Below are positions 36,185-36,730 of a DNA stretch of 64,000 bases, piece after piece. The translations under genes were made by a program, and so were the position numbers. The notes below the pieces were generated by a model. The model was given only the letters and a program-made list of their open reading frames with translations. It did no database searches and was not told the DNA's origin. The DNA is taken from sequence record PV018827, one strand, 5' to 3'. Every line of letters starts with the position of its first letter. The first letter of the stretch is position 1. The DNA comes from Escherichia phage KM01.

Positions 36185-36243
36185 ATTTTAATTTCCTTAT
36201 TTAATTTGAAAGATTGTTGCTCTCTTTGAGCGGTTATGTATAG

Positions 36244-36252
36244 TATACATTA
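36244..36252 (-). promoter_or_regulatory. TAATGTATA promoter motif (minus strand) upstream of SSB-like gene
   Basis: Exact TAATGTATA on minus strand ~60 nt upstream of ATG 36184. Confidence 0.5.
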
Positions 36253-36315
36253 CGCTTATACCGATAAGAGTACTATATAATATAAGTATCTTTGGTAGTA
36301 GATATATCACACTAG

Positions 36316-36324
36316 TAATGTATA
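36316..36324 (+). promoter_or_regulatory. TAATGTATA motif (plus strand) in 415-bp intergenic region
   Basis: Exact motif oriented away from SSB gene; no plus-strand ORF downstream. Confidence 0.3.
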
Positions 36325-36730
36325 TACTGTATAGCTGATAAGGTTATTGCAGGCTTGTATATTGGGCAATTCAAAGAATCCCTTGCAAGTACCGAAGGGC
36401 AGGAGCCACCTGCGAGATAAAAATAGAGAATTAAGGAATCCTTGATTTAGGTTGTAGGGACTCCTAGGGACTTTGATTCTCTATTTAAAAGAATATTAAT
36501 TACTTATTACCTAAATAATTAACTAACTTACTTAAACCAAATTCAATAAGAATAGATAAAAAGACTATTCCTAAGAAAGCTAAAAAGTAAAGGATATAAG
36601 TTACCATTCAAGTAAACCTTTAAAGTTAGATTGTTCTACTATCCTCTGATAACGAAGATTAGAATCAGCTTGTTTCTTTAACATCTCATTATATTGATCT
36701 CTGATAGAATCTTTATGTACTACAGGTTCT

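Follow-up and report, generated by a model that had tools for sequence, protein, structure and literature searches.

A candidate rightward gp36 promoter opposite P40 and a predicted structured non-coding RNA between genes 40 and 41 of a phiEco32-like coliphage

Bacteriophage phiEco32 is the model in which the control of transcription by gp36, a minimal phage sigma factor, and by its partner gp79 is studied. Six gp36-dependent promoters have been found experimentally, those of genes 6, 13, 26, 40, 58 and 68 (PMC8948821, with its Table S3; PMC4331800), and the promoter set of this phage has been treated as these six, all serving protein genes. They share a single strongly conserved element, tAATGTAtA, with starts 6–8 nt downstream of it; in Table S3 of PMC8948821 the element reads TAATGTAgA in P6 and TAATGTATA in P13, P26, P40 and P58. 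For P40, a transcript 5' end in vivo and transcription in vitro by the gp36 holoenzyme have been reported in phiEco32. A 2025 cryo-EM study of the P68 open complex revealed that gp36 also reads a -35-like region, in which -37G and -34A contact R187/Y186, and in the P68 mutagenesis that accompanied the structure, mutating -37G and -34A abolished transcription.

Other phage systems resemble parts of the locus described below. The OOP RNA of lambda is a short intergenic RNA (77 nt) made from its own promoter against the flanking operon and complementary to read-through transcripts; it has a canonical terminator and overlaps the 3' end of cII. At the primary origin of T7 (promoters 1.1A/1.1B and an AT-rich region) and at oriF and oriG of T4 (a middle promoter and an unwinding element), a phage-specific promoter is followed by an AT-rich stretch within a replication region. 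The pRNA of phi29, a prolate-headed podovirus, is a structured RNA of about 170 nt that is transcribed early from the genome end.

The gene 40–41 region and its gp36 promoter motifs

The window, that is, the whole 64,000-nt stretch of DNA analysed here, belongs to a Kuravirus and is about 98% identical to phiEco32 and other Kuraviruses. A megablast search with positions 35400–37300 returned 98 phage records, all of them E. coli/Shigella podoviruses of the phiEco32 group, from the genera Kuravirus, Suseptimavirus and Nieuwekanaalvirus (Gordonclarkvirinae), most of them 95–99% identical. The 416-bp stretch under study, which is 97.8% identical to phiEco32, corresponds by the phiEco32 annotation to the gene 40/gene 41 intergenic region plus gene 41. 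Its coding neighbours are as follows.

35438–36184, minus strand: coding sequence of gene 40 (phi32_40 homologue), from the phiEco32 annotation
36500–36607, minus strand: gene 41 (phi32_41 homologue), encoding a 35-aa hydrophobic peptide, from the annotation of phiEco32 and many relatives and a match to PHROG 24970

The original prediction described a non-coding gap of 415 bp. The real gap measures 315 bp (36185–36499), because positions 36500–36607 are the 35-aa gene phi32_41, whose start overlaps the stop of the upstream gene 42. Paul-, XT18- and ECBP2-like relatives have no gene 41 but retain the RNA block described below; the gene is not part of the promoter/RNA element, although it lies inside the gap as first drawn. 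The gap had also been called AT-rich and the longest of the minus-strand module. The first description is right for the flanks (GC 0.17–0.28) and wrong for the core, 36340–36460, where GC is 0.42–0.47, about the genome average; the second holds for the stretch of the module inside the window (315 bp, the next gap being 235 bp), but the whole phiEco32 genome has gaps of 358 and 1944 bp.

Several features of the neighbouring genes were recorded. The gene 41 peptide is very hydrophobic (MVTYILYFLAFLGIVFLSILIEFGLSKLVNYLGNK), and in Paul-, XT18-, ECBP2- and Bas86-like phages, which lack gene 41, a longer phosphoesterase gene abuts the RNA block. The gene 40 product (248 aa, PHROG 6599) has no Pfam or PDB sequence match and ends in TYEDDNDSPF, an acidic tail with a terminal aromatic residue which we take to resemble the tails of bacterial and T7-type single-stranded DNA-binding proteins. 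In one GenBank record (Ptacy1532), the gene 40 protein is named an ssDNA-binding protein. Between the spanin gene and gene 40, SU10, WFI101126, Ptacy1532 and others carry an HNH homing-endonuclease gene of about 420 bp (1540–1953 in the WFI101126 record, corresponding to window positions ~35405–35437), which the window and phiEco32 lack.

Five exact copies of TAATGTATA are present in the window, against 0.58 expected, and none of 100 shuffles reached five. When all copies of the motif were compared together with their flanks, the six published gp36 promoters mapped one-to-one onto six motifs of the window, each identified by its match to the published promoter:

1532, plus strand: motif of P6
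8946, plus strand: motif of P13
25522, plus strand: motif of P26
36252, minus strand: motif of P40
42976, minus strand: motif of P58
47513, minus strand: motif of P68, sequence AAATGTATA

Two exact copies of TAATGTATA lie in the gap in opposite orientations, 36244–36252 on the minus strand and 36316–36324 on the plus strand, as had been noticed; they form a perfect 10-nt inverted repeat, the two arms being 61 nt apart. The earlier description of these copies as divergent promoter motifs was correct, but it left unmentioned that one of the two is already known biology: the copy on the minus strand is P40, a middle promoter that depends on gp36 and has been published for gene 40. The elements of P40 and of the candidate plus-strand promoter are listed here.

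36185–36237, minus strand: predicted 53-nt 5' UTR of gene 40, with the start placed 7 nt past the P40 motif by the published 6–8-nt rule and with AATGTA centred at -11.5
36244–36252, minus strand: -10-like element TAATGTATA of P40, an exact motif
36271–36275, minus strand: -35-like element TAGTA of P40 (-38 to -34), from flank comparison
36293–36305, plus strand: upstream block TGGTAGTAGATAT of the plus-strand promoter (-38 to -26), with 13 identical nucleotides in P68
36316–36324, plus strand: -10-like element TAATGTATA of the plus-strand promoter, an exact consensus

Like the window's other gp36 promoters, P40 has T-38 and A-34; its -37 position is A, not G. The gene 40 leader (36185–36237) contains the ribosome-binding site AAGGAA at 36193–36198 and a small hairpin, GCUC-AAAGA-GAGC, and it is invariant in 18 relatives. 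The ribosome-binding region of the gene 40 mRNA, AAAUAAGGAA (36193–36202, minus strand), is resembled, not complemented, by AAUUAAGGAA in the RNA block (36429–36438, plus strand); this likeness, one inverted repeat in the repeat listing of the window, may be due to chance.

The probable plus-strand promoter

The plus-strand copy (36316–36324) corresponds to none of the published six. phiEco32 itself also carries this motif, at 36704 on the plus strand. It combines both sets of determinants described for gp36 recognition. Like P68, it has AATGTA at -11.5 in the -10-like element, -37G and -34A, and the identical -38 to -26 block: the P68 counterpart of TGGTAGTAGATAT, at 47536–47524 of the window (minus strand), occupies the same promoter positions and is identical at 13 of 13 nt. 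The pentamer TGGTA fills -38 to -34 (36293–36297), with G at -37 and A at -34. The plus-strand promoter is the only one that joins the P68 upstream block with a perfect -10 element, which would make it a ready test substrate.

These elements are conserved. TGGTAGTA of the plus-strand promoter is invariant in 24 of 24 distinct sequences (that of the window and 23 from relatives and metagenomic contigs), and the 11-nt spacer between the -35 block and the -10 element varies in sequence and is constant in length. The -10-like element is invariant in all phage genomes examined, with one metagenomic contig as the single exception. In EcM-vB1-like phages the plus-strand promoter is intact, with TGGTAGTA retained, next to a 145-bp insertion whose end coincides with the T of TGGTA.

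The exceptional contig is ERZ1034915 NODE-75 (L033, 68 kb), in which TAATATATA replaces TAATGTATA by a G to A change at -11. As -11G is contacted directly by gp36, this change could be a natural promoter loss or an assembly error. The insertion of about 145 bp (1286–1429 in EcM-vB1; also in myPSH1131 and ES17) lies between P40 and the plus-strand promoter and carries a 47-aa minus-strand ORF, whose start codon abuts TGGTA.

P6, P13, P26, P40, P58 and P68 each lie upstream of a sense protein-coding gene, whereas the plus-strand promoter faces away from every gene. A sense gene downstream is, however, a property of the known gp36 promoters rather than of the promoter mechanism. From the agreement with the -10-like element and with -37G and -34A, the plus-strand motif is probably a functional gp36 promoter, the seventh of its kind. 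That the second motif and the repeats are instead a functionless relic or a product of chance, as the natural variant with the -11 G to A change might suggest, is hardly credible: 0.58 motifs are expected per 64 kb, another copy is 63 bp away from the plus-strand motif, the P68 upstream block is matched over 13 nt at the right distance, and the motif is conserved above the level of the neighbouring genes. The finding as a whole is real and beyond chance. Its P40 half is established, and its plus-strand half is absent from the promoter lists in PMC8948821 (with Table S3), PMC4331800 and PMC4281155; Pavlova 2012 or Savalia 2008 may have noticed or tested it.

On this reading, E. coli RNA polymerase with gp36 as its sigma factor would start from two promoters placed back to back in the gap. 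Leftward transcription from P40 would begin near 36237 and run through the 53-nt leader into gene 40. The rightward promoter (TGGTA at 36293–36297, TAATGTATA at 36316–36324) would initiate at 36331; activity would be expected in the middle and late phases, probably with stimulation by gp79, as for its close look-alike P68. Of the regulator-binding sites that had been proposed for the gap, this leaves a trivial version, the binding of the gp36 holoenzyme itself.

A conserved block downstream of the probable plus-strand promoter

The original prediction had noted that the plus-strand copy points into a region free of ORFs. This is confirmed: the plus strand holds only a 32-codon ORF with a TTG start, which has no Pfam match and whose frame is broken by 1-nt indels in relatives. 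These single-base indels, 67 nt apart, shift the frame of this sole plus-strand ORF, and a coding role of the block was rejected on this ground. A minus-strand ORF annotated in 4E8 was rejected as well; it is not open in the window.

Positions 36395–36484 are the best conserved of the surroundings: they are 0.94–0.99 identical in 12 diverse relatives, above the flanking genes, and the BLAST homology of many relatives, including those without gene 41, stops at 36489. Together with the promoter, the alignments delimit a predicted non-coding RNA with the following parts.

36331–36489, plus strand: predicted non-coding RNA of about 159 nt (about 185 nt in type-B relatives), from alignments and promoter, its 5' end predicted from the promoter and its 3' end placed only by where conservation stops
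36331–36347, plus strand: 5'-terminal hairpin H1, AUAGCU-GAUAA-GGUUAU, from folding and compensatory changes
36353–36390, plus strand: variable domain of type A, 38 nt, with stem GCUUGUA/UGCAAGU plus GGG/CCC and a variable tip
36399–36413, plus strand: small hairpin GCAGG-AGCCA-CCUGC, with an invariant stem and its sole variable position (C/A) in the loop
36422–36485, plus strand: long 3' hairpin with a 15-bp basal stem, from folding

The transcript would therefore consist of four parts, the 5'-terminal hairpin, a variable domain, a small GC hairpin and the long 3' hairpin. Hairpin-capable segments had been announced for the gap, and the repeat listing and folding bear this out. Compensatory changes were observed in two helices. 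In H1, whose first paired base is the predicted +1 (36331), 13 representative sequences show among the six pairs one that varies as CG/UA/AU, one as UA/GC and one as GU/GC; two pairs have double changes and one position has three pair types. Over these sequences 98.7% of cells are paired; the comparison with slid partners gives 99.5% against 34–54%. These changes would equally maintain a palindrome in the DNA, and the G-U pairs of H1 would be A-C mismatches on the minus strand. The other case is the type-B domain, a 65-nt version that substitutes for type A in 12 of the 98 phage records: one of its pairs is UA in MN05-like phages and CG in ECBP2, and the closing pairs go from GG/CC to CGG/CCG.

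Elsewhere, variation falls in loops. The 27 other pairs tested never vary or vary on one side only, and the 3' hairpin is nearly invariant; about 100 nt of the predicted RNA do not vary at all, so that the structure there is without covariation support. Over the whole structure, the count of pairs with double changes does not exceed that of shuffles (81/500), and the z-scores of the whole RNA are modest, -2.0 for the plus and -2.3 for the minus strand. In all three alignments the consensus fold of the plus strand is better by about 9 kcal/mol than that of the minus strand, from which H1 is absent. The GC skew of the region is positive, a sign shared with the sense strands of this phage's genes.

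Alignment of ECBP2, MN05 and EcM-vB1 to window positions 36353–36392 shows that types A and B are unrelated versions. They are combined mosaically with two versions of H1 and two of the 3' hairpin, and these combinations suggest that recombination has occurred within the RNA gene.

The direct repeat that had been reported is also real: TAGGGACT occurs at 36455–36462 and at 36465–36472, with a 10-nt spacing. The first copy lies in the apical loop of the 3' hairpin and the second in the 3' strand of its stem. Two one-base deletions by which the repeats differ in some relatives shorten the loop and remove a bulge.

Searches for known RNA families were negative. Rfam 15 gave no match to 36331–36489 on either strand, even at E<=10, no match in type-B relatives, and none in the whole window at gathering thresholds; a tRNA/tmRNA search of the region found none. 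No second copy of the RNA block exists in the window, where, besides the 13-nt promoter block shared with P68, only chance-level 10–12-mers were found. Full-text literature searches found no Kuravirus or phiEco32 small RNA or transcriptome.

Specific families were considered and dropped. The block has four GGA in about 160 nt, roughly as expected from composition, and only one of them in a predicted loop; a CsrB/RsmZ-type sponge for CsrA, which would present many GGA in hairpin loops, was dropped on this ground. A CRISPR-repeat mimic was dropped because the defining features are missing in the sequence. A phi29 pRNA-like RNA was dropped because the defining loops are missing: no sequence or Rfam similarity was found and, by eye, there are no complementary loop pairs for ring formation. 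The pRNA further differs in being an early transcript at the genome end, while Kuraviruses package with terminase.

Possible transcript ends, strand and function

The predicted stability of the long 3' hairpin is -23.5 kcal/mol (z = -3.4) for the plus strand, where AAAAG comes next, and -18.2 kcal/mol (z = -3.7) for the minus strand, where the next bases are UUAUCU. A rho-independent terminator combines a compact GC-rich stem and a 3–8-nt loop with a direct U-tract; the 3' hairpin is AU-rich with large loops. A scan for such terminators in 35400–37400 called none on either strand, and on the plus strand no convincing terminator was found for about 4 kb after the hairpin, to about 40.7 kb. As the plus strand has neither U-tract nor terminator here, a discrete 3' end of the RNA would need processing or unusual termination.

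This bears on a different reading, in which the plus-strand promoter is real and its product is not a discrete small RNA but an antisense RNA, kilobases long, to genes 41–5x. Such a transcript would collide head-on with polymerases from P58 or the early promoters, or form double-stranded RNA, and would shut down or insulate the middle genes late in infection. The absence of a U-tract after the 3' hairpin and of a convincing terminator up to about 40.7 kb speaks for it, as does the orientation of the promoter, convergent with the whole minus-strand module. Read-through over this distance would, however, leave unexplained the peak of conservation within the first 160 nt and its sharp end at 36489, the maintenance of helices, and the survival of the intact block where the neighbouring gene 41 has been replaced. 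We consider the long antisense transcript unlikely.

The signal might also belong to the other strand. The minus-strand hairpin and its U-tract would then mark the end of the upstream operon ahead of P40, as an intrinsic terminator or as a processing site of the RNase III type, and the plus-strand TAATGTATA would be duplicated and either non-functional or merely polymerase-binding. Consistent with this are the stability of the hairpin on that strand (-18.2 kcal/mol, z = -3.7), the UUAUCU that follows it, the invariance of the A5 run, and the expectation of a terminator between two transcription units. The hairpin, with a loop of 16 nt and an internal loop of 10 nt, was however missing from the calls of the terminator scan, and the records of WFI101126, Paul and 4E8, three relatives annotated with terminator features, have none in the gap. 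A minus-strand function would also leave unexplained the conserved positions 36331–36420 and the invariance of both promoter elements at the correct spacing, and the G-U pairs of H1 and of the basal stem become A-C mismatches on this strand. An exclusively minus-strand role therefore appears quite improbable. The hairpin may have a dual role, as a terminator on one strand and an RNA domain on the other.

The reading that we favour is that the plus-strand promoter drives a conserved, structured non-coding RNA of about 160 nt, in other words that the block is probably a gp36-driven small-RNA gene. An antisense or small-RNA transcription unit was among the functions first suggested for the gap, and it is the one that gained support: the motif shows every sequence feature expected of a gp36 promoter, and the block behind it is conserved and structured, with compensatory base-pair changes. 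The likeness to lambda OOP lies in the position of a short RNA with its own promoter against the flanking operon. In contrast to OOP, the block stops 10 nt short of gene 41, lacks a U-tract on the plus strand, is twice as long and more structured, and would depend on a phage sigma factor.

Our best guess is that this RNA would be a stable species acting in a structure-dependent manner, either through a bound protein or through pairing with minus-strand transcripts that read through the same region. Base-pairing in trans is less likely, as extended complementarity was found neither to phage nor to host sequences, and complementarity to other phage sequences of the window did not rise above chance. 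A more specific and rather doubtful proposal is that of a self-contained 'RNA moron', which would represent a new class of small phage RNAs, made only by the phage sigma factor. Its product would be a decoy or sponge for an RNA-binding protein of host or phage (for example a defence sensor or a regulator of translation), or it would serve a transcription-dependent origin as its structured primer. The swappable type A and type B domains suggest an arms-race interface.

A replication origin had been suggested for the gap in its own right. In a T7/T4-type origin, transcription from the orphan promoter would prime or open the leading strand, and the AT-rich positions 36487–36600 would be the unwinding element. 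Such an arrangement would fit a promoter without a gene beside a very AT-rich stretch (GC 0.17–0.27), at a site inside the replication and nucleotide-metabolism module, with gene 40 past P40 ending in an SSB-like acidic tail. The characteristic signals are nevertheless missing. There are no iterons, the sole direct repeat being the two-copy 8-mer inside the 3' hairpin of the RNA, and no conserved unwinding element: the AT-rich flank differs among phages, being coding sequence (gene 41) in some and replaced in others. The GC skew has no inflection at 36.3 kb apart from the local strand bias, and its only large switch, at about 30 kb, is where the direction of transcription changes, which the skew follows and which makes it uninformative as an origin test. 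Relatives with a gp40 of 40–70% identity have no such region, yet they must replicate. The T7 and T4 origins, for their part, are without a conserved structured RNA. The origin suggested for this gap is consequently unsupported, and we regard it as very improbable; the long antisense transcript, the minus-strand terminator or processing site and the origin are progressively less likely, in that order.

A close gp40 is present in 98 records, and the region is matched in 98 records. In IMG/VR and in metagenomes, pattern scans detected the core in Kuravirus-like contigs and nowhere else, and nothing similar was found in E. coli genomes, in plasmids, or in 185,579 bacterial and archaeal genomes. 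The phages with gp40 at 40–70% identity (three IMG/VR contigs, 7-11, Privateer, GAP52 and LAh_8) lack the element, and their gap upstream of gene 40 measures only about 55–170 nt. The element is restricted to Gordonclarkvirinae of E. coli, and the block looks like a lineage-specific, self-contained module made of promoter and RNA.

If the preferred reading of a gp36-driven small-RNA gene is true, a seventh promoter, conserved across 98 sequenced relatives and serving a structured non-coding RNA, would add an RNA player to the gp36/gp79 programme. Kuraviruses also serve as therapeutic coliphages, for which an unannotated conserved gene is worth knowing.

A host-type promoter was also observed further along the minus strand. 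At 41347–41375, just inside the 5' end of the DNA polymerase ORF (39558–41402), lies a perfect sigma-70 consensus promoter with TTGACA, a 17-nt spacer, TATAAT and a TG before the -10 element; it is the sole 12/12 match in 36300–48000.
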